A DNA stretch of 64,000 bases from sequence record NZ_CP017043.1; one strand, written 5' to 3'. A model generated the notes under the pieces. That model was not told where the DNA came from, did no database searches, and worked only from the letters and a program-made list of their open reading frames with translations. Below, in pieces: positions 601-44,022 of this stretch. Positions within the stretch are counted from its first letter, which is position 1. Each line of letters begins with the position of its first letter. A program made the translations under genes and the position numbers. The DNA comes from a plasmid.

Positions 601-798
601 TTATTTGCGGGAAAAACGGTTTTTGACACCATCATAAAACCGATCCAGCCGTCTTTCTAGGCGCGGATCCTCCTCTGTGAAGATCATGGTATAGTCTTTT
701 CCCTTGTCTTTTTTGGCGAGAGCCGCAATAAAAAGCCCGATCCCTATGCCAAATACAACGCAAAGAACCCATGACAGCATGATTATCCCTCCTCTCAT
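601..798 (-). CDS. small membrane protein (65 aa)
   Basis: ORF track. One strongly hydrophobic segment (LSWVLCVVFGIGIGLFIAALA). The start overlaps the upstream giant gene by 4 nt. Confidence 0.4.
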   Translation of the reverse strand: MRGGIIMLSWVLCVVFGIGIGLFIAALAKKDKGKDYTMIFTEEDPRLERRLDRFYDGVKNRFSRK

Positions 799-3700
799 CG
801 AGACGCTGCTTCGGTTTGCTTTTCTTCGAGGTCTTTGGTCACGAGCTGATCTTCTTGTTTGTTCTGTTCCTCAATCAGCAGATTCACCTCGTTGTACCGC
901 AATGTCTTCTCCTGGAACTCGGCTTCCTTCGGGAAGGGCTTCCCGAGTCCCTCTTCACAGTCTTTGACTTCCTGCCGCAGCCGCTCCACCTCGGCTTCTG
1001 CCAGGGGGAGCCGGCCAAAGACGGTACGCGGTGCATTTTCCAGGCGTGCTGCGTTTTCCTCCGGCGTTGTGGCGCCGATGCGGAAGGTATTTGTAGTCAT
1101 ACCTGAGAATACGACCTCGATGTGATGATTTTCGTTCTGCACGACAGAAATTTTCATGCCGCAATACGTCCCGCGCGGTGTCTCCTTGAGTTTTCCGTCA
1201 TAGATTGCACGCGCGCAATCGGCCAACACTTCCCCGATCTCCTTCGGCGTATTGTACGCAACGCCTTGGAGGACGAAGGTCTTGTCATCTTGGTGCTGCT
1301 CAATCGTTTCAATATCTTTTTGCACATTTTTCAGATAGCACTCAGCACTCTTGATAAACGACGGAAGCCCGACATTCAGGCGATGGTTAAGCTTGGACTG
1401 ATCCTCCATATATTGTGCGCGCTCCGCACCAAGCTTTTGCAGCGCATTCCGAAGCTCGAACTGCTCCTTATAAAGCGGATTCCCCGTACAGGCCGCTTTC
1501 AGCTGCGCATAGGTCATCGTAAATTCGTCCACATCCTCCGCTTCGCGTACGGGCGTCCGATTCGTCATGACCTGCGAGATGAAGCGCTGCTTCGTCTCGT
1601 TCGTTTGCCACATGTAGGAATCGAAGGTCGCATCCGTCACATAACGGAAGACCTTGACCTTCTCATTCTCGTTCCCACGCCTGACGATACGGCCGAAGCG
1701 CTGCTCGATCTGGCTGGGCTTCCATGGGCAGTCCAGGTCATGCGAGGCAATGAGCTTATCCTGGATGTTTGTTCCGACGCCCAGCTTATCCGAAGACCCT
1801 AAGAGGACGCGAACCTCCCCTTTCCGGACGCGCGTGAACAGTGCCTCTTTCTTTTCCGGTGTGTCATAGTCATGAATAAAGGCAATCTGCTCTTTCGGTA
1901 CGCCTTTCTCCACGAGTTTTTCCCGAATATCGGCATATACCGTGAACGATGCTTTCGGGTTCGGCGTGGATTGGTCGCAGAAGATTACCTGAGTAGACTG
2001 CTTGTCCGAGGTCTCTTCATAAATCTTATACACGTTATTGACGCAAAGGTTGACCTTACCGTCCGGATTATCCGGGTAGCTTGGATCAATGATGCGGGGA
2101 TCCAGCGCGGCAGATTGTCCCTCCTTCACGACAACAAGCATATTATCCATGCCTTTACCGGTGGACTTATCTGCATCCGCACGCAGCTGAATCGGTTTGC
2201 GCTGCCGAATGAGTTTGGCGCGCTCGGCCAGCCGATCAACAATATCCTTCTGCAGCTGCGACGCCTCTGCCTTTACGATCTCAATTTCATACTCTGGGAC
2301 AGGCAGTTTCAAGCTGTCTGCGGTTTTCACATCCGCAAACTCCTTGAACATGCTCATGAGTTCCGGGATGTTGTTGAATCTTGCAAATCGCGTCTTGGCG
2401 CGGAACCCTTTTCCGGCCGGGTCGATTTCCATCGTTGTCGTTTCCTGACCGAACGCGCTCGCCCACGCATCGAAGTGGTAAAGTCCCTGCTTCTCCAGAC
2501 GGCTGGGGCGAAGATAACGCTGCATTGTGTAAAGTTCTGCCATGGAGTTTGAGAGCGGTGTCCCCGTCGCGAAGACAACGCCGCGCTCATTTGTGACCTC
2601 ATTCAAATATTGAATCTTTGCCAGCAGATCCGTGGATTTTTCTGCGCCCGCAGAGTTGAGCCCCTGAATTTTCGTCGTAAAGGACAAATTCTTGTAAAAA
2701 TGCGCTTCATCAACGTACAGGCGGTCGATACCAAGCTGCTCAAACGTAATGGTCGCGTCTTGACGGCTTTGATACGCCTCCATAATCGCCTCGTACTGCT
2801 TTGTCAGCTTCTTGATCTGCTTCTCCATCTGTTTGACGGAGAATCCTCTGCCCTCCTTCGCTATTCTCATAGCCTCGAGAGAGTCTGTCAGCTCCTGTAT
2901 CTCGCGCTTTAGGAATTGCTCCTGCCGTTCGAGCGACAGCGGGATCTTCCCGAACTGTTCATAGCTCATGATAACGGCATCCCAGTCCTGTCCCGTGATC
3001 TTTGCACAGAACTCTGCCCGCTTGTCCTTCTGGAAATCCTTGGGCGTTGCAACGAGGATCTTCGCGTTCGGATAAAGCCGCAGAAACTCTGCCCCGAACT
3101 GTTCCGTCAGATGCCCCGGCATAATCATGAGCGACTTTTTGCAGAGTCCGATCCGCTTTGATTCCATCGCCGACGCCTGCATTTCAAAGGTCTTGCCGGC
3201 GCCGACAACATGAGCAAGAAGGGTATTGCCACCATATAGCGTATGTGCAACAGCGTCCTTTTGATGCTTCTTCAGCTGAATTTCCGGATTCATCCCCGGA
3301 AAGCTGAGGCGGGATCCATCAAACTCACGCGGCACAATATTGTTGAAATGTCTGTTGTAGTAACTCACCAGACGATTTTTGCGCTCTTCATCCCGGTACA
3401 CCCATTTCAAGAACTCATCTCGCAGATTGTCCATCTTCTGCGCAACAAGAAGAGACGCATCCTCAATCACCACGCCTTTGTCGTTCCGTATGCGGATCTG
3501 CCGATGATTAAGCGCAGCCTCGAGAATGGCCAAGGCGTTTGCATCTTTCGTCCCAAAGGTCGAATACATCTTGACCTTATTCGACCGATGAGTATCCATC
3601 TTGCTCTCTACCTTCCACTCTCCTGTGGAGGCTGCATACTGGACGAGTCTATTTGTTCCGCGATATTCCAGCACGTCCTTGATAAATTGTTCAATATCCT

Positions 3701-6700
3701 CCGTCGGGATCCATGTTGCTCCCAGGTTGATTTTGATCTCATCGGCAGTCAGATCCTTCGGTTTCACCTTCTCCAAAGCTGCAAGATTTTTATTCGCGCG
3801 ATGAATCTCACTGTGCAGATAGGAAACGAGCGGATTGCCGCCTCCGTTTTTCACCGCATCAATTTTCTCGTCATACGTCTGCAAGTGCTCCTGCAGGGCA
3901 GACGCCAATCTTTCCGGCTCCAGCACCTCTGGATGCGCCCCGCTCTCATAATCCGAAAACGTCTTGAAGAGAAAGCCCATCGTCTTGGTGTCAACTGTTC
4001 CATTTGTGACCTGCCACGCGTCAATCCCCAATGCCGTGATAGTATCCGAGAAGATGCGGTGTGCTTCGTTGATCTCAAAATTGAACATGACATTGTTGCG
4101 CAAACACTCCAGATAAAACAGCGGATCGTGCAGGGCAGCAGTCATTTCGGGCGCAGACTTCTCCAGAAAGTCGAAATACCTTATTTGTAACTCATCAGAA
4201 GAATGATCCATGGCATAATAAAATGCCCCTCTGTTTTCTTCCAAAAACAGATCTTTCTTCTGTTCATTCGAAAGTAATCTAATGCCGTTCCATACGGTCA
4301 GTTTTTCAGTGGATATATTGCTGCATGACCTCTGCCGCTGAAACAGTTTCGGAACAGGAAATACCTGCTCTTCTGCAATCCCCTGCATTTCTTGCTGCCA
4401 TTTTTGAATCTGTCGCTCCAAGTTCTCCATGCGTGCACGAACATCACCGGACAGATATTCGTCTGCCGGAAGGTACGAATTTGTTTCCATGTCTTCAAAG
4501 ATGCTGGTGTACTCCAGATCCTCAACGACCTCTTCGGCAGACAATCCTGTGAGTTTGGCCATGTAAGGAATATCAACACGCCCTTTTTCCTGCATGGAGA
4601 TCATCAATGCCTCACCCGGCGTATCTGCATGATCCGGCGGGGTATAAGCATGGATGGTGCGCTTGGAGAATATATCGGATTTCCCGACAAATTCTCCGTT
4701 CTCAACAATTTCCAGAGAGAGCAGCAATGGATAGGATGCGTCCTTGGAAAAGTTTTGCCGAAGCTTGTTATCCTCATAAATACGCCCGTATTTTTTCATA
4801 TATTCGTCATAGAGCTCATTCAGCGTCGCTTGATATTGTGTCAGTTCTGTGTCGCTGCAATCACGCAGCTCGGCATCATACATTGCCCAGATCTGGTCGC
4901 GAATCTGTATGGCCAAAAGGATCTTTTGTTCCGTCTTTTTGTCGAAGGCCACCGTCTCGATTGTCCCCTGCGGCGTGTAATATACGAGGGTTCCATTCTG
5001 CTCGTAGAGACCAAAAGGCTGATTATGTGACGGCGCCTCGACTTCCTGCGGAATGGGAAGCGCATCCGGGAGCGGCTGATATGAATTGGCCGGAATGGAC
5101 GCAAGAACCGCACTCAGCTCATCTGCCAGGGCTTTGCCGCTGTGTCCTTCAACGTAAGGCTCTATCCCAAATGCCATATTACGCATGGAGAGCGTTCCGA
5201 GTATGTCGGACGGATGCTCTATGAAGTAGCGATTCAGATGATAGCCATCTTCGATGCGCTTGCTGCCGTCAAAGTGAACTACTTCCTGCCAATCAGCATT
5301 CACCCATGCGGGCAGTTCAGCATCCGGTGCAAGCTCCTTTTCCCGTTTCCGGAAAATCAGGAGATCGGAAAGGACATTCGTGCCCGCAGCTTCAAACAGC
5401 TGGTTCGGCAGCCGGACGGCACGAATCAGTTCGCCCTTTTGAGCAAGCTCTCTCCGGAGCGAATCATCCTTCTTGTCCATTGTGCCGTGACTTGTGATCG
5501 CAACGACAAGACCGCCCGGCCGGACTTGATCCATCATCTTCTTCAAGAAATAGTCGTGAACAAAATAATTCCTGTCATAGTTGGAATCCGTGATGATATA
5601 GTTTCCGAACGGAACATTGGAAATCGCTAGATCAAAGGAGTTCTGCGGGAAACGTATGCGCTCGAACCCCTTATTCAGTATAGTTGCGCCATCGGCTGCA
5701 TATTGTGCAACCTTTGCCGTGAGCATATCGAGCTCGACGCCGACCCTGCGGCTCTGCTCTTTCATGCTGCTCGGCATATGGTGTAGGAAGCGGCCTGTTC
5801 CGGTCGATGGATCAAGTATGGTTCCCTGCTGAAATCCAGCTTGTTCAAGGCCGCTGTAAATTGCCTGGACAATCTCCGGCGGCGTATAAAACGCATCCAA
5901 TGTGGAGGCACGCGCGGACATATACTCAGGCTCCGTCATGATTTCTTTCGCCTGTTGGTGTTCGCTGTGCCAAGCTGTATTGCGTGCGTCAAACGCCTCA
6001 GAGAGGCCGCCGAATCCTGAATAGGCACGCAGAACTTCCAGCTCCCCTTCATTGGGGAGGTTTCCCGTGCGATCCAGATGATTGGCAATCTGCACGGCTG
6101 CGAGATTTCGCTGAAATACAGCGCGCTTCCCTGCTGTCGTGGACATATCGGCAGAAAGATCCAGTGTAGAAAGATCTACCTCCGCAAATTCTGCGTCAAT
6201 GATGGGAGGCGCGTCCGTCTCGGCATGATCTTCCGCTGCCGGTAGATCAATCGTCTGCGGGTCGATTATCTCAGCTTCGTAAACCGGCCGCACGGTTTCG
6301 GAATCTGTGGCCGCCTCGTCCGCTTCAACAGGAGCCGCTGCAGGTTCTGCATCCGCTTCTGCCGCTGTATCCTCATGCTCGTCTGTCAACGTCTCCGCAC
6401 GGTCCAATACAGGCTCAGGAGCCGCAGTATTTATCCATGAACTCAAAATATCATCGTAGGAGCGCCCGGACAGCTCTGTAAGCTGCACGAATAAATTTTC
6501 CCGCATATCGCTGGAATCAATGCCGGCATACTCATAGAGGGCGCTGCCCATGGGAAGCGCATCCGAAAGCTCCTGGAACGTAATATCCTTCAGATAATTC
6601 CCGCTCGAATCATCGGAATATTTTTCCAAATACCACTCCTTGATTGAGGAATTCATGGATAAAGCAGGTTTTTCTGCCTCAACCGAATCAGTCCCTGGAG

Positions 6701-8006
6701 CAGATTCCTCTAGGGCATTCACGGCAGCCTCTGATTTTTCCGCTGGATGAAGCTCCTGTGCTGCTGCGGGAGTGGCATACGTCGCAGCCAGCTCATAGTA
6801 GGCTCGCCCGATCAGAGCGTTCTGCGCCTCCGACGAAAGCGTCTCTGCAGACATGAGTGCACGCACGAAAGAAAGGTACATTTCACGGGATTGTACGCCC
6901 GTAATATGACCTTCATTTCGTGCAGTTTGAACGTCTTCGAAGAATTTGTTTGCAGATTCCTCCTGCAAAACATCAGGAATGCGGATCGAAAATTCGTCTA
7001 CACGAACGCTTCCTGGGGCTCCGGCATGATCTCCGCCGCCAGGCGTTCCCGCACCTCGGCGAGAACGCTGTTGTAGCTCTGAATCCACTGCATCACGTCG
7101 CGCTTCTTGAGGTCTTCCGTCACGCCGTCCCGCTTGCAGATCGCTGCTGTCAGCGCCTCCGACTGTTCGAACATCATGTCCTCGTAGTCTCTCAGATACT
7201 GATCCAGCGTCCCTGCGTCCAGCATCCGCTTCCACTCCTCCGGCTGGGTTCTGTGCAAATAATCCCGCCTCATGTCGCCCCAAATCCCATAGAGAGATTT
7301 CAGGATCACTTCTTCGGTCATTTGAATCTGCCTCCTTCTGCTTTGCAGCATTTGCTCTGTTCGCCGCAGTAATTGCATTGCCGAGCGAATCCAGAATCGT
7401 ACGCGAAACCTGATTGACCTCTCCCAGAACCACCGCAATATGGACATCTTGCGGAATAGAAAGCTCCGCCGGAAAGGTGTTTTGATTGGAAAGCCCCAGC
7501 CGCGACCGCACAACATATTCTACGCTCGCCGTTAAAAAATCAGCATGCTCCGAGTTCTGCGCCGCGGCAAGCTCTGCGGCCTTCGCTCGGATTGCCTCAT
7601 CCAGCGATCCGTCGCTCCCAAGCGTGCGCAGCACAAGTGCTTCGTGTGCAGGGGTAAACTGCCATGGAATCCCTTGTACCGCTGCATCCCCGTTTTGAAA
7701 AGCAATCGTATCCCGAATGTCATAGACATATCGAACGGTGTACTGATCATCGGGCTCCGATACCAGGAGCGGGATCGCGGCAGCACCATCACGCAATGTT
7801 GTTCGGAAAGAGTTTCGCCAAACATGATCCGGAGCAACGGCGCTTGCCTCAGCTGAGGCACGGTAATGCAGATTGATCTGCTCCATGATGGAATACTTAT
7901 GGAATTTGGCGATGGTATCAAGAAAAGCCCTATATTCTTGGGTACTATTGCTGACCTTAGTGAGATGGTCTCTTATTTCGAGCTGCAGCTGTTCTTTCTC
8001 TTCCAT
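795..8006 (-). CDS. giant fusion protein (2403 aa): N6-adenine DNA methyltransferase plus SNF2/DEAD-like helicase
   Basis: Methyltransferase motif I (ILDPSTGTGRFL) and motif IV (ISNVPFGNY, NPPF-like). Helicase motif I (LLAHVVGAGKTFEM), motif II (LYVDEAHFYKN), motif III (FATGTPLSNSMAELY) and motif VI (GSSDKLGVGTNIQDK). An RG/RD-rich low-complexity linker lies near aa 250-330. A GGAGG RBS precedes the ATG. Confidence 0.85.
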   Translation of the reverse strand: MEEKEQLQLEIRDHLTKVSNSTQEYRAFLDTIAKFHKYSIMEQINLHYRASAEASAVAPDHVWRNSFRTTLRDGAAAIPLLVSEPDDQYTVRYVYDIRDTIAFQNGDAAVQGIPWQFTPAHEALVLRTLGSDGSLDEAIRAKAAELAAAQNSEHADFLTASVEYVVRSRLGLSNQNTFPAELSIPQDVHIAVVLGEVNQVSRTILDSLGNAITAANRANAAKQKEADSNDRRSDPEISLWDLGRHEAGLFAQNPAGGVEADAGRRDAGSVSERLRGHDVRTVGGADSSDLQAGRRDGRPQEARRDAVDSELQQRSRRGAGTPGGGDHAGAPGSVRVDEFSIRIPDVLQEESANKFFEDVQTARNEGHITGVQSREMYLSFVRALMSAETLSSEAQNALIGRAYYELAATYATPAAAQELHPAEKSEAAVNALEESAPGTDSVEAEKPALSMNSSIKEWYLEKYSDDSSGNYLKDITFQELSDALPMGSALYEYAGIDSSDMRENLFVQLTELSGRSYDDILSSWINTAAPEPVLDRAETLTDEHEDTAAEADAEPAAAPVEADEAATDSETVRPVYEAEIIDPQTIDLPAAEDHAETDAPPIIDAEFAEVDLSTLDLSADMSTTAGKRAVFQRNLAAVQIANHLDRTGNLPNEGELEVLRAYSGFGGLSEAFDARNTAWHSEHQQAKEIMTEPEYMSARASTLDAFYTPPEIVQAIYSGLEQAGFQQGTILDPSTGTGRFLHHMPSSMKEQSRRVGVELDMLTAKVAQYAADGATILNKGFERIRFPQNSFDLAISNVPFGNYIITDSNYDRNYFVHDYFLKKMMDQVRPGGLVVAITSHGTMDKKDDSLRRELAQKGELIRAVRLPNQLFEAAGTNVLSDLLIFRKREKELAPDAELPAWVNADWQEVVHFDGSKRIEDGYHLNRYFIEHPSDILGTLSMRNMAFGIEPYVEGHSGKALADELSAVLASIPANSYQPLPDALPIPQEVEAPSHNQPFGLYEQNGTLVYYTPQGTIETVAFDKKTEQKILLAIQIRDQIWAMYDAELRDCSDTELTQYQATLNELYDEYMKKYGRIYEDNKLRQNFSKDASYPLLLSLEIVENGEFVGKSDIFSKRTIHAYTPPDHADTPGEALMISMQEKGRVDIPYMAKLTGLSAEEVVEDLEYTSIFEDMETNSYLPADEYLSGDVRARMENLERQIQKWQQEMQGIAEEQVFPVPKLFQRQRSCSNISTEKLTVWNGIRLLSNEQKKDLFLEENRGAFYYAMDHSSDELQIRYFDFLEKSAPEMTAALHDPLFYLECLRNNVMFNFEINEAHRIFSDTITALGIDAWQVTNGTVDTKTMGFLFKTFSDYESGAHPEVLEPERLASALQEHLQTYDEKIDAVKNGGGNPLVSYLHSEIHRANKNLAALEKVKPKDLTADEIKINLGATWIPTEDIEQFIKDVLEYRGTNRLVQYAASTGEWKVESKMDTHRSNKVKMYSTFGTKDANALAILEAALNHRQIRIRNDKGVVIEDASLLVAQKMDNLRDEFLKWVYRDEERKNRLVSYYNRHFNNIVPREFDGSRLSFPGMNPEIQLKKHQKDAVAHTLYGGNTLLAHVVGAGKTFEMQASAMESKRIGLCKKSLMIMPGHLTEQFGAEFLRLYPNAKILVATPKDFQKDKRAEFCAKITGQDWDAVIMSYEQFGKIPLSLERQEQFLKREIQELTDSLEAMRIAKEGRGFSVKQMEKQIKKLTKQYEAIMEAYQSRQDATITFEQLGIDRLYVDEAHFYKNLSFTTKIQGLNSAGAEKSTDLLAKIQYLNEVTNERGVVFATGTPLSNSMAELYTMQRYLRPSRLEKQGLYHFDAWASAFGQETTTMEIDPAGKGFRAKTRFARFNNIPELMSMFKEFADVKTADSLKLPVPEYEIEIVKAEASQLQKDIVDRLAERAKLIRQRKPIQLRADADKSTGKGMDNMLVVVKEGQSAALDPRIIDPSYPDNPDGKVNLCVNNVYKIYEETSDKQSTQVIFCDQSTPNPKASFTVYADIREKLVEKGVPKEQIAFIHDYDTPEKKEALFTRVRKGEVRVLLGSSDKLGVGTNIQDKLIASHDLDCPWKPSQIEQRFGRIVRRGNENEKVKVFRYVTDATFDSYMWQTNETKQRFISQVMTNRTPVREAEDVDEFTMTYAQLKAACTGNPLYKEQFELRNALQKLGAERAQYMEDQSKLNHRLNVGLPSFIKSAECYLKNVQKDIETIEQHQDDKTFVLQGVAYNTPKEIGEVLADCARAIYDGKLKETPRGTYCGMKISVVQNENHHIEVVFSGMTTNTFRIGATTPEENAARLENAPRTVFGRLPLAEAEVERLRQEVKDCEEGLGKPFPKEAEFQEKTLRYNEVNLLIEEQNKQEDQLVTKDLEEKQTEAASR

Positions 8007-8404: not shown

Positions 8405-10093
8405 TCAAGCAGAGGTATCACTCGTTTTATTTGTTGTCCGTTGCCGCACAATGCTCTGCTCTTGTGCTGCCCTCTTCTCCCGTTCTTCCTTTTCGGCCTT
8501 CTGAACGACGTAGGAGCCATAAGGGGTATTCGGATGATCCCGATCCCAATTCTGTGGCTTATACCGGGAGAGCATTGGCGATAGGTTTCTTGATTCTACG
8601 CCGTCATTCAGGAGCGCCTTTACAATCTTAGTGTCCATCGTGATGTTATACGGGAGCCGGATGCGCCCTTCCATCTTACGTCGTTGGTATTGGTACTCTG
8701 CTTCGAAGTCTTCTCGCATCTCGGTACGAGGTATCACAACATAGCGGCTCAGTTTTTCATTTTCTCTTACAAGCTCCTGGTCTGCAAGCTTCTGGATATA
8801 TGCGAAATAATCCGCGCCGCCGAATATTTGATTGGGCGAATGATTCATCATTGCCTCCCTGATCTGATCCGGCGTATACTGGCCGCCCAGCACAAGCTCT
8901 TTCATGGCCGCAATGTCCATGTCCGGATTCACAAAGTCTTTCTCTATGTACTGACGGTGCATTGCATCCATATATGCAGCTGCGCAGGAACCTAGATCAT
9001 TCACATCAAACATCGCGATTGCATCTTCTCTTGAAAGTGCCTCCTGCGCCTGTGCCAAGATCAACGCTGCGTATTCGGTGGAATCCGGAAGTGCAGCAGC
9101 AATCGCCAGAGCGATCAGATACCGTTTCACAATATCTGTACGAACACGGCTCCGCAGCATTCTGGCCGCCGTGCGGCCGTCTGGAGAACGAGACTGTCCT
9201 TTGATATTGGTATACGCATCATCGTCTCGCTGATGCAGCCCAAGGCTCTCACACGCACAGAGGAAAGTTTCGTCAAGGTAGGTCTCTCTGCTGCGCCCGG
9301 GTTCGATATAAAGGGGAGACGCCTGAGCAATGGACTTTCGGAGAATCGGCTGCACCTGCTCCTTGAGTAAAAACATCATACGCGCTGGATCTTTCTGATA
9401 AGCAGTCCGCTCGTCCTGAAGACGGCGCATATAGTCCCGATAGATCGCCTCGATGATCTTCTGCTCATCGTCAATGGTGAGCACAGTTGTATTTGTCCTC
9501 TCCATATACTCCCTGGCGAATTTTCGGTAAACATCTGCTTCGCTGCTCATGACACCGCCGGCATACGCCATGATTGCAGCATAGCGATTGTGTCCATCGG
9601 ACAGCGCAGAAAAAAGCGTCTGAAAATAGGATTCATCGGCCTTCCGCTCGTTGGCAGACTGCCGAATTACCTGATTCACAACAGCGATCGGAAAGCCGTC
9701 TTTCAAGATCATGGCCATGCCAATACGATAATCCCGCTGAAGTCCCGCAGCTTCTGATTCTGCCGCTGCGCGCCGCCGATAACTTTCCGCCGCTTCGAGA
9801 TATGTACGCGATGCACGCTCCGCCCACGCTTCATTGATGTTCTCCATGACTTTTCCGGTATAAAGCGCCATTGCGCGTACATCCGGAAGCAGTTTGGTCA
9901 TGGGCGATTTTTCGCAGATCACAGATCTCACGGCATCGACATCATATCCGCTTTCCAAAAGCCGGATTGCGGCCGTCAGATCGTTCTCGTAGTTCTCTGC
10001 CTGTTGATTGGGAAATTCGGCAGTATTCTCCTTTTTGCGCTCAACCATTGTTTGTCCGAGCACATCAAGATATGCAACTGTAATATTTTTCAT
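8405..10093 (-). CDS. hypothetical protein (about 562 aa) with internal repeated helical modules
   Basis: ORF track. The likely start is MKNITVAYL, preceded by a GAGAGAG RBS. The segments DVDAVRSVICEKSP, EDAIAMFDVNDLGS and DQIREAMMNHSPN recur. There is no catalytic motif I can name. Confidence 0.6.
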   Translation of the reverse strand: MKNITVAYLDVLGQTMVERKKENTAEFPNQQAENYENDLTAAIRLLESGYDVDAVRSVICEKSPMTKLLPDVRAMALYTGKVMENINEAWAERASRTYLEAAESYRRRAAAESEAAGLQRDYRIGMAMILKDGFPIAVVNQVIRQSANERKADESYFQTLFSALSDGHNRYAAIMAYAGGVMSSEADVYRKFAREYMERTNTTVLTIDDEQKIIEAIYRDYMRRLQDERTAYQKDPARMMFLLKEQVQPILRKSIAQASPLYIEPGRSRETYLDETFLCACESLGLHQRDDDAYTNIKGQSRSPDGRTAARMLRSRVRTDIVKRYLIALAIAAALPDSTEYAALILAQAQEALSREDAIAMFDVNDLGSCAAAYMDAMHRQYIEKDFVNPDMDIAAMKELVLGGQYTPDQIREAMMNHSPNQIFGGADYFAYIQKLADQELVRENEKLSRYVVIPRTEMREDFEAEYQYQRRKMEGRIRLPYNITMDTKIVKALLNDGVESRNLSPMLSRYKPQNWDRDHPNTPYGSYVVQKAEKEEREKRAAQEQSIVRQRTTNKTSDTSA

Positions 10094-10361
10094 TCGTTGC
10101 TCTCTCTCGTATTTCTGTGGCAGCTTGTAGCATAACGGCATGTGCGCGCCGTGTAGTTTCATCAGCAGCGCTCGAACGAGGCTTTATTCTCGGAATAGAT
10201 GCCATCGTATTTCGATAGAGGCGTTCTACTATCTTTGCATCTTTTCCCTGTGCCAAACGAATACATTCTTCTATGCGGTTGATGTGATGATAAACGAACC
10301 ACAATGCAACAATCAGCAAAAGCGCTGGCATGCTGGCAAAAAACTCGATGGAGAACGACAT
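10065..10361 (-). CDS. small membrane protein (98 aa)
   Basis: ORF track. N-terminal TM segment MPALLLIVALWFVYHHI. Confidence 0.45.
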   Translation of the reverse strand: MSFSIEFFASMPALLLIVALWFVYHHINRIEECIRLAQGKDAKIVERLYRNTMASIPRIKPRSSAADETTRRAHAVMLQAATEIRERATNEKYYSCIS

Positions 10362-10424
10362 ATAATACTCCTTTCCAGTAAAATTGCCCCTTTGGTGAAG
10401 AGGTCAAGATATGCGACAGTAATA

Positions 10425-10667
10425 TCATTCTCTATGCGCCCCTAACTCCAAGGACTCCTTCAAAACAACGCGCGTTTCTTGTATCATCGTCTCTGTGGAG
10501 GCCTTAACATCATGCACGGAAGAAATGACGTGCTCCAGCACTTCTTTGTTTTTCTCTTCCATTTCGAGAAAACGCTTCTCCATGCTCTTCACACGGCAGA
10601 AAAGCTGCAGCGTAACAATCAACAAAACAACTGTTGCGCTGGTCAAAAGTTCAACGAGCAACGTCAT
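10425..10667 (-). CDS. small membrane protein (80 aa)
   Basis: ORF track. N-terminal TM segment LLVELLTSATVVLLIVTLQLF followed by a coiled-coil-like tail. Confidence 0.45.
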   Translation of the reverse strand: MTLLVELLTSATVVLLIVTLQLFCRVKSMEKRFLEMEEKNKEVLEHVISSVHDVKASTETMIQETRVVLKESLELGAHRE

Positions 10668-10690
10668 AATATCACGCCTTTCCTCGAAAC

Positions 10691-13141
10691 TTACGGAGCA
10701 GCAACTTCTTCCGCCGGATCGGAGGATTTATCCTCAATGATGTTGCAGCGGATCAGCCAGCGACGGTTGAACTCTTCAACGCCGTGTTCGCGAACGATCT
10801 CCTTCGCATCATTGACGCCTTTGGTATTGACGGCAACGTAGGCCAGCGAAACGGGACAAGCATCCAAGGCCAGCTGGAAGAGGCGCGAGCCATAAGGCGA
10901 CACATAGTAGTAGTCCATCTTCTTCGTTGCTGATGCGAGAATTTCAATCTGCCGACGGTTCAGCCCAAACAAGGCATAATTCTCGGCCGTTTTTTCTTCC
11001 AGAGCATCATTGTTGGGCAGAAATACGCGGCTGGGACAAGATTCGAGAACAGTGTGGAAAATGGGGCTGTTGACAATATCGGTGATGGATTGTGTCGCAA
11101 AGATAACGGAGGCATTTGCCTTACGGAGAACCTTGAGCCATTCGCGGATCTTCGCTGCAAACTGTTCGTTGTCAAAGAAGACCCAGCACTCATCCAAAAC
11201 AATGATGGTCGGCTCCCCTTTCAGGCTTTGCTCGATCCGATGGAAAATATACATGAGCGTTGTTCCCACAATCTGCGGCGTGCTCATGAGTTTCTCCATT
11301 TCGAACGTCTGCCAGGAGCCGAGCTGGAGGCTGTCTACATCCGAATCGAAAATACGTCCATAGGGACCGCCGGAGCAGAGCGGCGCCAGGGCTTTTTTCA
11401 GTTCTTCGGACTGGATCGCATTCACGAGGTTTGTCATGCGACGCAGACGCTTGTTCTCACCAACGTATGAAGTGGCGATGGCTTCCAGCGCATCCCAGAT
11501 CAGCTGCTTGCGCTCCGGCGTGATTTCAAGATTCTCCTGCCGCACATAGTCACAAATCCATTCAAGCGCCCACTGACGCTCTTTATCATCATCAATCTTT
11601 GCCAACGGCTGGAAGGAAAGTGCCCCCGTTTCCTCATTTCCGAGATCGAAAAAAGTTCCTCCGACGCCCCGTGTGAGGACATAGCTCGATGCCCCCTTAT
11701 CAAACACAAAGACACGGGCATCTTTATATTTGCGGAACGAGGACTCTACCATATTCAAGAAGACTGATTTTCCCGCTCCAGTGGGACCGACTACGAGCGT
11801 ATGCCCAACATCACCGACATGCAGCGTGAGCCGAAACGGCGTATTCCCAGAGGTCTGTGTATAAATAAGCGGCGGTCCCTGCAGGTGCTTATTGCGGGAG
11901 GCTCCTGCCCATATGGTAGAAAGCGGCATCATATGAATGAGATTGGCGCAAGATACCAAATGGCGTCGCACATTGCGGCCAACATTGCCGGGAAGAGAGC
12001 CCATCCAAGCATCTACACTGTTGAGATCTTCGACTTTCGCCTTAAAGCCGATGTTGTTGATTGTCTGAACAACGGCTTTTGCGCGCGTATCTGCTTCATC
12101 CGGCGAATCGCCTAAAACTACAATGCTGGACGTGTAATAGCCGTAAGAGGTAATATCCGACTCGATCAACGTCTCTGCAGCCTTTGCTTGCTGATATTTT
12201 GTAACGGCCGTCTGGTTGAGGTTACTGTTATCCTCCTGGCCACTTGCGAATTCACGCATCATGTCTGTCAGACCCTTGAATTTGGCTTTCCATTCCTTCT
12301 TTTTCTTGCCGACTTCATTCAAGGCATCCAGTTTCCCAAGACAATAGTAGCGCGAGACCCACCGATACGAGAAATTTTGCAGATTCAGGTGATCGAATAT
12401 CCCAAAGATGGTGTTATCCATATACCCGATGATCGTGATAACGCGCATATGTTTACTGCCCAGACGGGGTTCCAATCCGCCGGAAAGCGAAGAATCGCAA
12501 AGGAACTGATCCAGCAGCATCGGATGTTTCGGAAGCTTTAGTTTGCGCCGTTTCATGGATATTGTAGAGTAGAGATATGTGACCATCTCGTCTGCAGATA
12601 GAATTTCACAGGGAATTTGACATGCGAAAAACATATTATATACATCATTCACGACCGTGCGAAAGGCAACGAGATAGTCATCTTCCGTCAGCCCCTTCTG
12701 CTTCTTTCCCTCTACAACAAAGGAGCGCAGTCGCCCCTCATGGTCATTCGGAGGCATCCAGTAGAGCGTGGCGTAATAATCCGACTCAAAATGAGAATCC
12801 CCGCCGCTGAAAAACTCTTTGCGTTCATCGTCCATGATCTTGGTAATCGGATCGGGGAAATAGGAATCTGTCGGATAATCCGTCGAAGGAACGCGCTGAG
12901 ACTCAAAAAACATAACCCAGCCCGTATCCATGGACGTGAAAGCAGAATTCAGCTTTTGCGTAATGACGGAAAGCTGCTCCTTGATGGCCGAATCCAAATC
13001 CGGTCCCCGATAGCTGAATGTCGTCTGCATGGAGCCGTCTTTATTCAGCACAATGGTCGGTGATCCTGGAATAATGCGTGCCCACGGCAACGTATATTTC
13101 AGAGGCTCACTTTTTACCAAGAAACGATCCAAACGATACAT
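10691..13141 (-). CDS. virB4: type IV secretion ATPase VirB4/TrbE
   Basis: Walker A LVVGPTGAGKSVFL, Walker B IIVLDECW, and the VirB4 signature VIFATQSITDI. The 816-aa length matches TrbE/VirB4. Confidence 0.92.
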   Translation of the reverse strand: MYRLDRFLVKSEPLKYTLPWARIIPGSPTIVLNKDGSMQTTFSYRGPDLDSAIKEQLSVITQKLNSAFTSMDTGWVMFFESQRVPSTDYPTDSYFPDPITKIMDDERKEFFSGGDSHFESDYYATLYWMPPNDHEGRLRSFVVEGKKQKGLTEDDYLVAFRTVVNDVYNMFFACQIPCEILSADEMVTYLYSTISMKRRKLKLPKHPMLLDQFLCDSSLSGGLEPRLGSKHMRVITIIGYMDNTIFGIFDHLNLQNFSYRWVSRYYCLGKLDALNEVGKKKKEWKAKFKGLTDMMREFASGQEDNSNLNQTAVTKYQQAKAAETLIESDITSYGYYTSSIVVLGDSPDEADTRAKAVVQTINNIGFKAKVEDLNSVDAWMGSLPGNVGRNVRRHLVSCANLIHMMPLSTIWAGASRNKHLQGPPLIYTQTSGNTPFRLTLHVGDVGHTLVVGPTGAGKSVFLNMVESSFRKYKDARVFVFDKGASSYVLTRGVGGTFFDLGNEETGALSFQPLAKIDDDKERQWALEWICDYVRQENLEITPERKQLIWDALEAIATSYVGENKRLRRMTNLVNAIQSEELKKALAPLCSGGPYGRIFDSDVDSLQLGSWQTFEMEKLMSTPQIVGTTLMYIFHRIEQSLKGEPTIIVLDECWVFFDNEQFAAKIREWLKVLRKANASVIFATQSITDIVNSPIFHTVLESCPSRVFLPNNDALEEKTAENYALFGLNRRQIEILASATKKMDYYYVSPYGSRLFQLALDACPVSLAYVAVNTKGVNDAKEIVREHGVEEFNRRWLIRCNIIEDKSSDPAEEVAAP

Positions 13142-14242
13142 TTACACCTCTCCTCCTTCATGGCCGCGATCTTCAATATACTCGTTCACGTCGACACTTA
13201 CTTCAACCAAACTGTTCTGCGCTTTCTCCAAGATGTCCTCCGTCTCTTTCTTGACTTCGATATGTGCATGAAGGAACTCGGAAAGGTCTTGAAAGCCAAT
13301 GACCGTAGGATCTGCGTTTGCGAGATAAAGCCCAGGGAGGCTTCCCCAAAACACCTTTTTCAGATTGAATTCCTCAACGATATAGGGAACGCATTCCCGA
13401 TCCAGCATATCCGTGAAAAAAGCACGGAACGGCTCGTCATTTGCTTGATCCAGGTGAAAGAGAAAGGTATCCGTATAATAGCCGTTATACACACTGATGA
13501 TGTCTTCTGTGGCCATACGCCGCAGAACCGATCGTGTTGGAAACCATCGCCCCGTATACCGCAGAAAATCTCTCTTGGCCTCTTTTTCATTGAACAGAAG
13601 GAGTCTGCGCGTATGACGATAGGTCATATGCTCCAATCGGCTGTAAATCTCATCCAGCTCATACGGAATCAGCATGGAGACGGCACATACCCGCTTGCCG
13701 TTGATGAAAATGTCGTTGCCGCCAAACTCAAAGTCTATGTCCTGCGAGAGCAGCGCGTCCATGTAGAGCGGGCAATCGGGAAGCTCTTGACGATCTTCTC
13801 CCATGGAGAGCGAAAATGAGAGAACATCCATGATCTCCTGATATTCCAAAACCCTTGCCGCTGTTATCTTCTGGAACTCCTCTAAAAAGGCCTGAACCTC
13901 TTTTTCAAAGTAATCTACGGTTTCATGGATTGAGACGCCTGGGTGCAGCGCATTTTCGACGGAGGTCTTTCCGGCCGCATAGAACGGATTCCAGCCGATG
14001 ATCAGATAATCCTGCGCTGGGACGTCTGCGACGTGCTGATGCTCATTCCAAATGACCCAGCCGCGCCGAAACGCCCAAGGCGGGAGTGTTGTCGAAAGAT
14101 CTGTTGTATATGGGGTGTAGGTGATGATGCTGAACATAGAGCCATTTTTTTGTTTCATAACGGACGGGCGAACGATCCCACCCCACGGGATCCATTCTTC
14201 GATTGCAGTAGACTGCAATCCAAATTCATTCAGTGATGCCAT
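13142..14242 (-). CDS. VirB4 N-terminal-domain paralog (366 aa, no ATPase domain)
   Basis: Colinear similarity to the N-terminus of the adjacent VirB4. IPWGGIVRPSVMKQKNGSMFSIITYTPYTTDLS matches LPWARIIPGSPTIVLNKDGSMQTTFSYRGPDLDS, GWVIWNE matches GWVMFFE, and the LPDCPLYMDALL...GKRVCAVSMLIPY block also aligns. There is no P-loop. Its stop abuts the VirB4 ATG. Confidence 0.7.
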   Translation of the reverse strand: MASLNEFGLQSTAIEEWIPWGGIVRPSVMKQKNGSMFSIITYTPYTTDLSTTLPPWAFRRGWVIWNEHQHVADVPAQDYLIIGWNPFYAAGKTSVENALHPGVSIHETVDYFEKEVQAFLEEFQKITAARVLEYQEIMDVLSFSLSMGEDRQELPDCPLYMDALLSQDIDFEFGGNDIFINGKRVCAVSMLIPYELDEIYSRLEHMTYRHTRRLLLFNEKEAKRDFLRYTGRWFPTRSVLRRMATEDIISVYNGYYTDTFLFHLDQANDEPFRAFFTDMLDRECVPYIVEEFNLKKVFWGSLPGLYLANADPTVIGFQDLSEFLHAHIEVKKETEDILEKAQNSLVEVSVDVNEYIEDRGHEGGEV

Positions 14243-14360
14243 ATTTTACGTTGCCGCGCAGATGTGAATTTTACGCGGCGTTCTCCTTTCTCCCTTGTTA
14301 ATCTGAGTATAAAGCAAAAAAATGCGCGGGATTCCTGTCTTTTTTCAAGAACAGGTCAAC

Positions 14361-14391
14361 AAAAAACGGAAACGGGAATCGCCCGCTTCCG
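14361..14391 (-). terminator. hairpin plus T-run on the minus strand between the VirB3 and VirB4-N genes
   Basis: The minus-strand RNA reads cggaagcgggcgauucccguuuccg followed by uuuuuu. 10-bp stem with one mismatch. Confidence 0.45.
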
Positions 14392-14405
14392 CCAAATGCA
14401 GCCCA

Positions 14406-14678
14406 TCAGGTGTTATAATATCGTTTCTTGTTCATGTATGACTTAATACAGTCAAAAAATTGAACGTCGCCTTTGCAGACATAGATCGCCAAAAAATGCA
14501 AAAGGAACGTGAAAATCAGGATGTAAAAGAACCCAAAGTTCATAATCAGGAACACGGCGAACATTGCATTCCAGATCAGTACGGGCTTAGGCACTCCGGC
14601 GAGCAAAGCTGGCTCCATCAGTCCTCTGAAGAAGTCAACATTATACCAGGAGCGAAGCTCTTCCTCTTTATCTGCCAT
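14406..14678 (-). CDS. virB3: VirB3/TrbD-like small inner-membrane T4SS protein
   Basis: 90 aa with two hydrophobic helices (PKPVLIWNAMFAVFLIMNFGFFYILIFTFLLHFLAIYV). It sits between the pilin and VirB4 genes, as in trbC-trbD-trbE. Confidence 0.7.
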   Translation of the reverse strand: MADKEEELRSWYNVDFFRGLMEPALLAGVPKPVLIWNAMFAVFLIMNFGFFYILIFTFLLHFLAIYVCKGDVQFFDCIKSYMNKKRYYNT

Positions 14679-22587: not shown

Positions 22588-23358
22588 TTATGGCTTGGTC
22601 GTCTGAGTTGCCTGTGCAGTCTGTGGCGCATTCGGCTCCTGGGTAGCCTTCGTTTCAGTATCCCGCTCCCAGCGCAGATCCTTGATGTAGATACCCAGAG
22701 GGTTGACGGCGAGTTTCTCCTTGTCGTCCGTCTTGATGATTTCAACGGTGAATAGTCCTGTATACGGCGTAACTTCACGTCGGCTGGCACCAGCCCGGTA
22801 TTCAACCTCTGACCAGCGCACCTGATAGCTTTTACCGCCCTCCATGGGAATAACGCTGTTGATCGTGACCTGAACGGTCGCATTATGCATCTTCTGCACA
22901 CGATTCTCCGCTTCCATGCGCGACGTGAGGATATTCGCACCATCTTTGGTTAAGAAGCTATAAGCTGTGCTCAGCTGCTTATTGTAAACGACCTCATCCA
23001 AAGGAACGCTGCGAATATCCTGGACAAACTGACGGATAAAGTAACTATACACCTCATCGCTCGGCGTATAGTTGGCCATGGAATTTGCTGTCCCGACGTT
23101 GCGAACCTCCCCTGTCTTGATGTCCGTTTCGACTACATAGACAAGCGTGTTCTCGGTGATTGCTTTGTAGCACAGAGCCCCGGCCAGCGCCACGATGACA
23201 ATGACAAGCCCCAATAAAAGCCGCCGCAGATTGTAATTCTGCTCAATGATCTCTCCCTCGCGGGCGTCCCACTTGCGGCTGGCTTTCTCAGCCGGACTTT
23301 GCGAAGTCGTCGGCGGCGTAAAATGCTCCGCGCGATGAAACAGTTGATCAATCTTCAA
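22588..23358 (-). CDS. virB8: VirB8/TrbF-like T4SS protein
   Basis: Cytoplasmic N-terminus, one TM (LLLGLVIVIVALAGALCY), a periplasmic NTF2-like region, and the conserved NPLGIYIKDL motif. Confidence 0.8.
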   Translation of the reverse strand: MKIDQLFHRAEHFTPPTTSQSPAEKASRKWDAREGEIIEQNYNLRRLLLGLVIVIVALAGALCYKAITENTLVYVVETDIKTGEVRNVGTANSMANYTPSDEVYSYFIRQFVQDIRSVPLDEVVYNKQLSTAYSFLTKDGANILTSRMEAENRVQKMHNATVQVTINSVIPMEGGKSYQVRWSEVEYRAGASRREVTPYTGLFTVEIIKTDDKEKLAVNPLGIYIKDLRWERDTETKATQEPNAPQTAQATQTTKP

Positions 23359-27935: not shown

Positions 27936-29081
27936 TCAAGGACTCGCCCGTCCATCCACAATTCCATGTCTTCGCAGAAACTCCTGGGCAAACACAGATC
28001 CCTCACCGTCGGCAGCTGCCTGGCGTGTGAGAAACTCGTGCAGGTTTTGTCGGTGTTCTTGTTTTTGCTCTTTTGGGGCAGGAGGCGGTACAGGTGGAAC
28101 ATAACTGCCAGGGGGCTGTGTTTGGGTTGGAGTTGATTCTTGCCGTGGAGTAACAGGCGCAAATGTATAGTTTTCTTTGAGCGCAGCATGAAGCCAGCCC
28201 GTCGGATTCCGGATGATCTTCGTCTGCATGGCGATCTCCAAAAGTCGGGCTTTGTCGCGCACTTTCTCCTCTCCGTAGCGACGAATAAACTGCTCCAGCG
28301 ATGATGTGGATACCCCCAGTGCAGCACAAAGGCCGCGAACGTCGCCTGTTGTTGTTTCACGTATTCTATGCGTGTTCTCTGTTGTAGTCTCTGTTACGCG
28401 CGCGCGCGAGGAGGGTGCCCAAACCCGCGCCGTTACTGGGGTTTCAGCACCTTCCGTCCGTGGTGTCAAATTGACCTCTGTACGTGGTTCATCTTGCTCC
28501 CCATGTGGTGTCATTTTGACACTTATGCGTGGTTCACCTGATTTGACCTTTTGACCTTCTATGTTATCTTCCGATATATCAGCGGCCTCATGTTCTGGTT
28601 GTGTGTCCTCGGGAGCATGGACGTCTTCGACATATTCCATCTGCTCTCGCATCGGTGGAGGCGCAGAAATACGCCGGTCGACACTTTCTACGCTCTCCTG
28701 AAATTGCTTATGTACGATTTTTTCACTAAGCTCTTCGATCAACTCATAGTTAATGGTGTAGGCCTTCGTCTTGTTGTAGGAATTTCCGATTACCGTCGAT
28801 AACATCACCTCTTGATCTTCAAGAGACTTGATGGTGCGTTTAATCGTGCTCTCCGACCAAAACGGAAATTGGACATTCCATTGCTTGACGGTATTATAAA
28901 TCCAACGGCGTCCGTATTCGTCGCAGATGCCCGCCTCACGGCTGATCCAGTATTGCAGCTGCTGCAGAAATATCGCCTCATTCAGGCCGATGAGAACGGC
29001 AAGGTTCGGCTGAACGGTAAGCGGGGATTCTTGGATCAGAAGACTTGACGCTGCCATCGTTCTCCACCTTCCTATTGCCAT
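27936..29081 (-). CDS. repA: replication initiator, RepA_N family
   Basis: N-terminal RepA_N-like domain (LIGLNEAIFLQQLQYWISREAGICDEYGRRWIYNTVKQW..FPFWSESTIKRTIKSLEDQEVM...KAYTINYELI), an acidic/Pro-rich linker, and a helical C-terminal domain. Confidence 0.6.
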   Translation of the reverse strand: MAIGRWRTMAASSLLIQESPLTVQPNLAVLIGLNEAIFLQQLQYWISREAGICDEYGRRWIYNTVKQWNVQFPFWSESTIKRTIKSLEDQEVMLSTVIGNSYNKTKAYTINYELIEELSEKIVHKQFQESVESVDRRISAPPPMREQMEYVEDVHAPEDTQPEHEAADISEDNIEGQKVKSGEPRISVKMTPHGEQDEPRTEVNLTPRTEGAETPVTARVWAPSSRARVTETTTENTHRIRETTTGDVRGLCAALGVSTSSLEQFIRRYGEEKVRDKARLLEIAMQTKIIRNPTGWLHAALKENYTFAPVTPRQESTPTQTQPPGSYVPPVPPPAPKEQKQEHRQNLHEFLTRQAAADGEGSVFAQEFLRRHGIVDGRASP

Positions 29082-29545
29082 AAAACGAGCGGATCGACAT
29101 ACATATAATTCCCATCCGCCCCTCGAATAATGTACTCGAGGTGCAGATGAGGTCCGGTCACGCGTCCCGTTGCACCAACAAGACCGATAATCGTGCCCTG
29201 TCCCACATACTCATCGACTCTGACATCAACCTCGGACATATGAGCATAGCGTGTATATCCATCAAATAACGGATGATAGAGAAGCACTTGATTACCATAA
29301 CCGTCCGCATAGTCGCCGGCTTGTATGACAACGCCGTCGAATAATGCGGGGATAGGCGTTCCTGCCGGATACCCTAGGTCGACACCTGCGTGGAAAGACC
29401 ATTCTCCTGAGATCGGATGGTAACGCCATCCGAACGCAGACGTGACAGGAAGATCCGAAGCGTATGCCTGTGCTGACAGGAAAACTAAAAGCCCCATTAG
29501 AGCCGCAGAAAAAAACGCTTCTCGTATTCTGCCCACATTATCCAC
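29072..29545 (-). CDS. secreted M23 (LytM) family peptidase
   Basis: Signal peptide AALMGLLVFLSAQAYA. HAGVDLGYPAGTPI...GYGNQVLLYH...YAHMSEV...GLVGATGRVTGPHLHLEY gives the HxxxD and HxH zinc-site motifs. Confidence 0.85.
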   Translation of the reverse strand: MDNVGRIREAFFSAALMGLLVFLSAQAYASDLPVTSAFGWRYHPISGEWSFHAGVDLGYPAGTPIPALFDGVVIQAGDYADGYGNQVLLYHPLFDGYTRYAHMSEVDVRVDEYVGQGTIIGLVGATGRVTGPHLHLEYIIRGADGNYMYVDPLVLWQ

Positions 29546-29568: not shown

Positions 29569-30129
29569 TTATTCGAGCTCTATTTCTCTTGACTTCGCAA
29601 TGGACTTCATTTCCTTAAAGTAATCTATAAGAGCAAAATATTTCCTTCGCATCAGTCGTTTGTCTACCGAATCTGCTGGGTAACGCTCATCAATATGCGA
29701 CATGAAATCTTCCAGAGATCTTTCAACACCGTCTCCACATTGAACAATATTGCGATCTACAAAATAGCGTATGTCTGACGGAAGGCCTGCATATCCAAGA
29801 GATATAATTTGTACGATGTTTTCGCTTGAATTTGTTAAATCATTTAAGTCAGCATGATGTAATATTGCTCCATCGAGCTTTGCATTTGATATATCCGCAC
29901 CTCGAAGATCTGCATAGGATAAATCTGCATCACGTAAGTCGGCAAATTGTAATTGAGCACCATATAAATCTGCTCCGCCGAGATCCGCGCGCCGCAAATC
30001 TATGCCGCGAAGTTTAGCATGACGTAAGCAAGCTCCACCAAGAAATGCGTTCTGCAGGTTACAGTGCGATAAATTCACCCTTTCCAAATCTGCACGTTGC
30101 CCCCTTCTTCCGAGAAAGCCCATTTCCAA
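29569..30129 (-). CDS. pentapeptide-repeat protein (186 aa)
   Basis: Tandem A(D/N)LxG pentapeptides: ADLRGADLGGADLYGAQLQFADLRDADLSYADLRGADISNAKL. Confidence 0.85.
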   Translation of the reverse strand: MEMGFLGRRGQRADLERVNLSHCNLQNAFLGGACLRHAKLRGIDLRRADLGGADLYGAQLQFADLRDADLSYADLRGADISNAKLDGAILHHADLNDLTNSSENIVQIISLGYAGLPSDIRYFVDRNIVQCGDGVERSLEDFMSHIDERYPADSVDKRLMRRKYFALIDYFKEMKSIAKSREIELE

Positions 30130-43098: not shown

Positions 43099-44022
43099 CT
43101 ATCTGATATTATCATTGCTCTTTCTATACTTGTCGCACGCTTCTTGGAACGTCTTTCCCATTGTAATCAGAATATCTTTAAGCGCTCTCTGCGCTTCACT
43201 GGATACGCGAGTCGCAGAAATTTCTTTCATGAAATCATCTATCCTCATTGAAGGTTTATCGTCAATAACATCTCTGCTGATAATTGTACGCAATCCCAAA
43301 TCACAAGCAAGGTGAATAGTATCTCCGTTGTCCGGAATAAATTGAACCTGCATAAAGCGGTTTTGCAGGTCAGATTGTCGAAAATGGCATTTTTCAATAT
43401 AGCTATCCAAAAACCCACTGTGTGTAAAGTCACATTTCTTAAAAGTGGCTTCATCAAAAGTACATTGTATAAAGGCTACATTCAAAAACTTGTTATCGGT
43501 AAATACAGACGTAGAAAAATCGGCACAAACCGGATTTACCGCCAAAAAACGATTCCCTTCGAGATGACAATTTTTTTCAAGCCAGACATGGTTGAGATTT
43601 GCTTCACGAAACACATTATCCGAAAATCGACACTGGTTGAATTTTGATTTTCCCAACATTGTGTTCTGCAGATCACATTGATTGATTCTACATACAGACA
43701 TAGTTGTTTGTAGAATTTTGGCATTTAAGAAATTGCAACTTTCAAAAGTAACGTCAGATATATTTGCATTGCTTAATTGTGCATCAGTGAAATCACAATC
43801 CTTAAAATGCAGACGTTCCATGGAAACGCCCGACAAGTCCGCTCCACGAAAAATCATGGAGTGAAACGGATGGATTTCGTTTGAGGAGCAAAAATCAAAA
43901 CCCCGTAAATCACAATTTGTAAAATCTGCTTGTCTGCCGGATTCGTGATTCGTTTGCATCCATCGGTCATGATCGCTTAGAATCCGGCGCACCTCATCCG
44001 AAGAAACCTGCCGTCTATCCAT
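43099..44022 (-). CDS. pentapeptide-repeat protein (307 aa)
   Basis: Long run of A(D/N)LxG-type pentapeptides: CDLRGFDF...FRGADLSGVSMERLHFKDCDFTDAQLSNANISDVTFESCNFLNAKIL... Confidence 0.85.
   Translation of the reverse strand: MDRRQVSSDEVRRILSDHDRWMQTNHESGRQADFTNCDLRGFDFCSSNEIHPFHSMIFRGADLSGVSMERLHFKDCDFTDAQLSNANISDVTFESCNFLNAKILQTTMSVCRINQCDLQNTMLGKSKFNQCRFSDNVFREANLNHVWLEKNCHLEGNRFLAVNPVCADFSTSVFTDNKFLNVAFIQCTFDEATFKKCDFTHSGFLDSYIEKCHFRQSDLQNRFMQVQFIPDNGDTIHLACDLGLRTIISRDVIDDKPSMRIDDFMKEISATRVSSEAQRALKDILITMGKTFQEACDKYRKSNDNIR

Follow-up and report, generated by a model that had tools for sequence, protein, structure and literature searches.

Type IV secretion systems (T4SSs) have VirB4 as their signature ATPase, and the plasmid record NZ_CP017043.1 raises the question of why such a system should encode the N-terminal part of this protein twice. 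The stretch analyzed here (64,000 nucleotides, hereafter the window) carries on its minus strand an intact open reading frame (ORF) of 366 codons (13142..14242, TAA stop included), for which we use the name TrbE-N. Directly 3' of it, on the same strand, lies the ORF of a full-length TrbE/VirB4 ATPase of 816 aa with its own complete N-terminal domain (10691..13141). A preliminary description of this DNA, made from its letters only, had interpreted the shorter product as a stand-alone paralog of the VirB4 N-terminal domain (NTD), and had left its role open among an assembly factor, a dominant regulator and a duplicated remnant. Our analysis establishes that TrbE-N is a conserved protein made only of the VirB4/TrbE NTD. 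One clade of conjugative T4SSs of the Trb type, represented in Selenomonadales and in several organisms with a low guanine-plus-cytosine (GC) content, has it as a fixed component. The function of TrbE-N may tentatively be sought in the structure of the secretion machine itself.

The assignment to the VirB4 NTD was borne out both by sequence profiles and by fold. When compared with the neighbouring TrbE by BLASTP, TrbE-N residues 1-304 were colinear with TrbE residues 1-385 at 20% identity (E 4e-6). In profile searches, the NCBIfam TrbE model (NF010447) matched TrbE-N at E 6e-13, with a score of 47.5 bits that lies below the curated cut-off of 1020, while Pfam CagE_TrbE_VirB (PF03135), which the preliminary description had recommended, remained sub-threshold (E 0.17, 12.3 bits vs. 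a cut-off of 21). Because this Pfam family falls below threshold, the database relatives of TrbE-N have no domain annotation and are named hypothetical proteins. A family alignment of 45 TrbE-N members (A1) was next compared with a set of 19 cognate TrbEs by hhalign, which equated TrbE-N 1-323 with TrbE 1-407 (probability 99.05%, E 1.9e-18). The colinearity proposed earlier was therefore upheld, but not its extent, which had been given as roughly the first 350 residues of VirB4. TrbE-N represents the whole NTD (~400 TrbE residues) minus ~90 deleted residues. An AlphaFold2 model built from A1 reached a predicted local distance difference test score (pLDDT) of 85.5 and a predicted template modelling score (pTM) of 0.82, and a fold search with this model retrieved the VirB4 NTD fold. 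Searching the A1 profile against PDB sequences returned only chance matches to STING (E about 1).

With respect to the VirB4/TrbE/CagE family (TIGR00929, NF010447), TrbE-N thus has the N-terminal domain (PF27097 / PF03135 region) and lacks the C-terminal P-loop NTPase. No P-loop match to Pfam was found in the protein, which ends at the linker that connects the NTD to the C-terminal domain (CTD), in agreement with the earlier observation that ATPase motifs are missing. A 'GKT' at residues 91-93 was considered as a Walker A motif and rejected, as it departs from the pattern and lacks conservation among family members. The most conserved family motif, LPDCPLYMDALLSQD (codons 154-168; 13739..13783, minus strand), has P155, P158, D162 and L165 invariant or nearly so in A1, and is equivalent to TrwK 209-214 (ICRDRF), a VirB8-tail contact. 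Near the N-terminus, the beta-hairpin motif PWGGIVRPSVMKQKN (codons 19-33; 14144..14188, minus strand) corresponds to TrwK 21-35 (S23-N35 mapped), where VirB8-tail contacts are made in R388; W20, G21 and K32 are invariant in A1, and G22 and P26 nearly so. Past the NTD boundary there is a variable acidic C-terminal tail without a TrbE counterpart (codons 324-366; 13145..13273, minus strand), in which pLDDT drops to 40-61, the A1 columns are variable and the hhalign match, ending at residue 323, no longer applies.

An arrangement of this kind might be thought to reflect a non-functional gene, that is, a decaying duplicate or a trbE split by a frameshift or by an assembly error, as the low pairwise identity between TrbE-N and TrbE and the lack of an above-threshold Pfam match for TrbE-N could suggest. 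We consider this hardly credible. The 816-aa ORF is a complete TrbE, matching NF010447 at E 1.9e-278 over residues 2-800 and spanning by itself profile positions 2-793 of 815, with Pfam matches to P-loop_TraG, AAA_10 and CagE_TrbE_VirB, and with Walker A (GPTGAGKS) and Walker B (VLDECW) motifs. A TrbE that is complete from residue 2 onwards leaves no room for a single gene cut into these two ORFs; both align to the same NTD, and they do not belong to the class of split trbE genes in which two complementary ORFs form one VirB4. The preliminary description had itself named a frameshift split as what would overturn its reading, and the NTD of the downstream TrbE excludes such a split. Moreover, TrbE-N/trbE junctions occur in differing relative frames, and the frame of TrbE-N is open in dozens of species, at identities down to about 30%. 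The ratio of nonsynonymous to synonymous substitution rates (dN/dS) between TrbE-N and its S. infelix relative was 0.054, with ~0.035 for the two halves of TrbE, although the synonymous rate (dS) is near saturation. Among the 45 A1 proteins, 26 columns are invariant with identities down to 32%. Across loci, TrbE-N diverges 1.65x faster than the TrbE NTD and in step with it (r 0.93). The pseudogene and frameshift readings are excluded, and TrbE-N is a gene under purifying selection that was born by duplication of the 5' half of trbE. The earlier view that an intact frame has been kept under selection is thus confirmed by the dN/dS and the wide conservation, while the option of a duplicated remnant must be abandoned in the face of the same dN/dS and the 26 invariant columns.

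Relatives of TrbE-N are widespread. A word-indexed homology search recovered 50 stand-alone relatives of 209-410 aa, with identities ranging from 99% down to 32% (the 209-aa relative is a fragment, with 70% identity over a short stretch). No precomputed Pfam domain was found among these 50, and 'hypothetical protein' was the only name given to them. A profile search of 1.84 billion representatives identified 75 clusters (50% identity) at E<=1e-30, mostly stand-alone full-length proteins of ~310-400 aa plus shorter fragments. Full-length VirB4s started at E 5e-29 in this search, below the stand-alone clusters, and were matched via residues ~115-300. Four proteins of 418-477 aa (P0164, P0173, P0188 and P0161) were evaluated as further stand-alone copies and discarded as truncated or frameshifted full-length VirB4s, because their sequence runs past the domain boundary and then looks out of frame. 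Among GTDB species genomes we found 32 loci, nearly all of them from Selenomonadales (Selenomonas, Centipeda, Mitsuokella, Megamonas and Pectinatus), the closest relative being that of S. infelix ATCC 43532 (86%). A tblastn search against PLSDB plasmids yielded no orthologue, just 22-25% matches to the N-termini of full-length TrbE, and no curated Pfam or NCBIfam family for TrbE-N was found.

The order of the genes around TrbE-N is strictly conserved. The order TrbB-TrbC-TrbD-(TrbE-N)-TrbE was observed in every locus long enough to judge, so that related Trb clusters do share the arrangement, a point on which the preliminary description had asked for a check. Distant members were located directly 5' of a full-length VirB4 in three loci (P0117 in L035, P0115 in L038 and P0104 in L039), and P0129 (L036) appears to be likewise placed, on a contig of just 1.6 kb. 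The GC content of the contigs with distant members is 25-40% vs. 48.5% in the window, which indicates that their hosts are other organisms. Their VirB4s are 47-52% identical to the TrbE of the window, and their TrbE-N counterparts just 21-25% identical to its TrbE-N. Some loci have decayed: trbE is truncated or in pieces in L001, L030, L032 and L034, and TrbE-N is also broken in the latter three. In L012, which has an insertion of ~2.4 kb in trbE, the TrbE-N ORF is still intact. A broken TrbE-N was found only where trbE is also damaged, and no locus combines an intact TrbE with a broken TrbE-N.

TrbE-N and trbE are also tightly joined. As the preliminary description had stated, the stop codon of the former (TAA, 13144-13142) abuts the start codon of the latter (ATG, 13141-13139). 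The 3' end of TrbE-N runs into trbE as GAA GGA GGA GAG GTG TAA ATG, and a strong Shine-Dalgarno-like AAGGAGGAGAGG for trbE can be read from the sequence within the last TrbE-N codons, ahead of GTG-TAA-ATG (13148..13159, minus strand). In the 18 intact loci the two genes either are separated by 0-11 nt or overlap by 8, 14 or 23 nt, and all three relative frames were seen.

The same architecture was found once outside the main family. P0141 is a protein of 371 aa (L037:8001-9116; ENA ERZ27252164 k141_384123) encoded 11 nt 5' of a 791-aa VirB4 (9128-11503), on a contig of 30% GC with a T4SS of different gene order. Because P0141 shares 37% identity (E 6e-84) with the NTD of its own neighbour VirB4 vs. 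just 22% with family A1, it represents an independent and younger duplication. This independent NTD duplicate suggests that the architecture has been repeatedly favoured. The neighbours of P0141 include a FHA/sigma-54 activator, a PP2C phosphatase and a large Ser/Thr kinase. A joint alignment of five stand-alone proteins, including P0141, revealed graded segment losses. TrbE 85-115 is missing from all five, ~TrbE 297-333 is also missing from the four main-clade proteins, and ~TrbE 47-60 is additionally missing from those of the window, L035 and L038. An independent L-INS-i alignment recovered the three large deletions of the window TrbE-N (TrbE 47-59, 85-115 and 305-333), and each of the five proteins ends at or just past the same domain boundary. 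The 85-115 segment (about 12797-12889 in the window, minus strand) is a conserved VirB4 segment, STDYPTDSYFPDPITKIMDDERKEFFSGG, that aligns to TrwK 89-114 and is absent from both contact lists, that of VirB3 and that of VirB8.

What such a protein might do can be approached through the known roles of the VirB4 domains. In R388, the two subunits of VirB4 dimers are joined solely via their NTDs; VirB3 is found on the central VirB4 subunit only, and the VirB8 tails on the outside subunit only. In DotO, the NTD is responsible for receptor binding and dimerization and the CTD for oligomerization (PMC11474061). From these roles it follows that a protein consisting only of the NTD could form a dimer with TrbE and attach to a membrane receptor, but not join the ATPase ring. 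Contact/co-evolution and distance tables for TrwK were taken from the supplement of Macé 2022 and transferred from TrwK to TrbE (hhalign, 98.8%) and from TrbE to TrbE-N (hhalign). TrbE-N retains each of the 18 VirB8-tail contact positions that could be mapped; they sit in the PWGG hairpin and the PxxPLYMDALL motif, and their conservation lies well above the background of the protein (z 3.0, p 0.0014). In contrast, 14 of the 42 VirB3-contact positions are deleted (Fisher p 0.006 vs. the VirB8 set), and the remaining ones are at background conservation (z 0.02). The cognate TrbEs show, if anything, relaxation at the VirB8-contact positions (z -1.4, not significant).

On this basis we tentatively propose that TrbE-N serves the inner-membrane complex of the T4SS as a structural subunit without a motor, paired through its NTD with TrbE at the place known as 'outside'. 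TrbE-N and TrbE would form an NTD-to-NTD heterodimer in which TrbE would supply the VirB3-bound central ATPase hexamer and TrbE-N, at the outside position, would dock the cytoplasmic tails of VirB8/TrbF, with coupled translation delivering the two proteins at about 1:1. Retention of the VirB8-contact positions together with deletion of a third of the VirB3-contact positions fits such a division between a central TrbE motor and an outside subunit for VirB8 docking, and the presence of a VirB8 homologue in the same T4SS (22588..23358, minus strand; Pfam VirB8 E 2.2e-31) is counted in its favour, the N-terminal tail of this homologue being the predicted ligand of TrbE-N. Several points weigh against this proposal. 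The contact mapping depends on remote alignments (17% identity between TrwK and TrbE, 22% between TrbE and its paralog), the mapped positions are clustered and therefore non-independent, and compared with the remainder of the domain the VirB3-contact deletions are only weakly enriched (p 0.08). Both conserved motifs are general to VirB4 and may be kept for folding. TrbE could still build its own outer ring, and the faster evolution of TrbE-N is also expected of a regulator or of a newly specialised protein. Finally, a homology search with P0141 found no family of its own, leaving this second case a singleton. A more far-reaching version is possible but more doubtful: the outer VirB4 ring in this clade may be built from a dedicated ATPase-less NTD subunit, with the split reached at least twice by stepwise loss of the VirB3-binding segments and of the TrbE 85-115 loop. 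If true, outside VirB4 subunits would be purely structural docks for VirB8 and their ATPase domains would be dispensable.

A different role for the same surface has to be weighed against the structural one. TrbE-N could be an assembly chaperone or negative regulator that caps the dimerization surface of TrbE without being a stable part of the machine, either holding TrbE in a soluble or monomeric state before docking, or acting as a dominant-negative brake on pilus biogenesis and transfer. TrbE-N shares the fold of the VirB4 NTD and probably its binding surface, and the ATPase and the oligomerizing CTD are absent from it. The 1.65x faster evolution relative to the TrbE NTD would likewise be compatible with such a function, the variable acidic tail could be regulatory, and a terminator-like hairpin and a conserved leader upstream of the gene could permit separate control. 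Nonetheless, TrbE-N and trbE are translated one right after the other from a shared message, and their junction is tight in 18 of 18 intact loci, which implies a near-constant ratio that would be odd for a switch. The selective conservation of VirB8-contact positions would be unneeded by a simple cap, and an inhibitor would more likely have been lost from working systems, yet no locus with an intact TrbE and a broken TrbE-N exists in our set. We therefore judge a chaperone or brake unlikely, and among the roles raised in the preliminary description an assembly factor or structural partner is favoured over a dominant regulator, a preference that we infer from the arguments above.

Still less probable, in our assessment, is a newly specialised adaptor that has kept its anchorage at the base of the machine and recruits a RepB-primase-C protein, the coupling protein, TrbB/VirB11 or the substrate, possibly via the tail. 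A large RepB_primase_C protein is indeed encoded 3' of trbE in the window, L002, L035 and L039, residues 324-366 are without a VirB4 counterpart, and TrbE-N has strongly diverged from every TrbE NTD (20-25% identity). However, the tail on which this recruitment could depend is the least conserved part of the protein and is nearly absent in some members (P0045 and P0047), no such tail exists in the independent duplicate P0141 or in the L035 and L038 proteins, and conservation is concentrated in the canonical NTD motifs.

Comparison with known systems places TrbE-N closest to two kinds of VirB4 subunit. It resembles the VirB4outside subunit (TrwK of R388; also DotO, TraC and TraB) in having the VirB4 NTD fold. 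Positions equivalent to the VirB8 contacts are kept in TrbE-N, and many VirB3-contact segments are gone. On the other hand, the outside subunit elsewhere is a second copy of the full-length ATPase, whereas TrbE-N derives from a separate gene, comprises the NTD only, is ~90 residues shorter and bears an extra tail; its placement outside is our proposal. The nearest precedent is RvhB4-II of Rickettsiales, a strictly conserved and faster-evolving VirB4 paralog without working ATPase sites, the role of which is not known (PMC4676284). Like RvhB4-II, TrbE-N is a conserved and faster-evolving paralog that accompanies a canonical VirB4. They differ in that RvhB4-II is full length with mutated ATPase sites and is encoded far from rvhB4-I, while TrbE-N has no ATPase domain, is adjacent and coupled to trbE, and has its hosts in unrelated lineages, Negativicutes and others.

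The encoding of the VirB3-VirB4 N-terminal module is varied in other systems too. The trbE gene is reportedly split into N- and C-terminal ORFs in some cases, such as trbEa/trbEb on pNGR234a. Fusions of VirB3 and VirB4 exist as well (PMC12624023). In both situations a single set of domains is redistributed, whereas here the NTD occurs twice and the downstream trbE is complete. EccE of mycobacterial type VII secretion shows a structural resemblance to part of the domain only, with no sequence similarity and with EccE being membrane-anchored; no paper linking EccE to the VirB4 NTD was found in the literature searched. The same literature contained no description of a free-standing VirB4 NTD, consistent with the preliminary description, whose author knew of no described T4SS with such a module. 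TrbE-N is thus a VirB4 paralog reduced to its NTD, conserved throughout one clade of T4SSs and evolved anew once elsewhere.

The genes surrounding TrbE-N make up a complete T4SS of the Trb type, carried by a large conjugative element. Directly upstream lies the gene for TrbD/VirB3 (90 aa; 14406..14678, minus strand; Pfam VirB3 E 4.9e-10), one of a series of upstream genes for VirB8/TrbF, CagX/TrbG, TrbI, TraG/VirD4, TrbB, the TrbC pilin and TrbD/VirB3. Elsewhere in the window there are an integrase, a MobA/MobL relaxase, a topoisomerase and two TrbL/VirB6 genes. The spacer of 163 nt between trbD and TrbE-N (14243..14405, minus strand), examined by terminator scan and folding, is 89% identical to that of S. 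infelix although the dS of the flanking genes is about 1.5 (near saturation). It holds two hairpins. The terminator-like first one, of 12 bp (14365-14393), is followed by a T-run just past the trbD stop; the second is located between a Shine-Dalgarno-like GGGAGAAAGGAG and the ATG ~40 nt further on, and includes one compensatory G-C to A-T change. An Rfam scan of the spacer gave no match. The levels of TrbE-N and TrbE may be set by this spacer, acting as an attenuator or as a translational control element.

Downstream of trbE, two small ORFs of 80 and 88 aa (10162-10667) without a family match precede the gene of the RepB_primase_C-motif protein (8405-10162, minus strand), which has the same position, 3' of trbE, in L002, L035 and L039; BLASTP relatives of it are also found 3' of trbE in L003, L004, L015, L017 and L031. 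In the window, the primase-like gene is followed by that of a 2403-aa N6-methylase and SNF2-helicase protein (795-8006, minus strand). Further components include a second, shorter VirD4-like gene and the two TrbL/VirB6 paralogs, of which one carries a fused M23 peptidase domain (33046-34656, 57359-59386 and 61417-63111, minus strand), together with a separate M23 peptidase (29072-29545). Pentapeptide-repeat proteins recur among these elements (window 29569-30129 and 43099-44022, both on the minus strand; L039:4129-5406), and may be DNA-mimic anti-restriction factors. The one in L039 has a faint match to the RepB_primase_C motif.

These results bear on how the VirB4 motor is built. The 'hexamer of dimers' of VirB4 has been described as a defining feature of the family (PMC11474061), and in the structural papers the role of the outer six VirB4 subunits is unclear. 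With the domain for dimerization and receptor binding encoded alone, in a conserved gene of its own, the need for an ATPase in the outer ring becomes directly testable. The universality of the two-barrel rearrangement that has been proposed for VirB4 dimers is likewise at stake. For the Selenomonadales of the oral cavity and the rumen, our findings give an identity to ~75 clusters of 'hypothetical proteins' on conjugative elements, and the TrbE-N gene provides an added marker for their type of T4SS.
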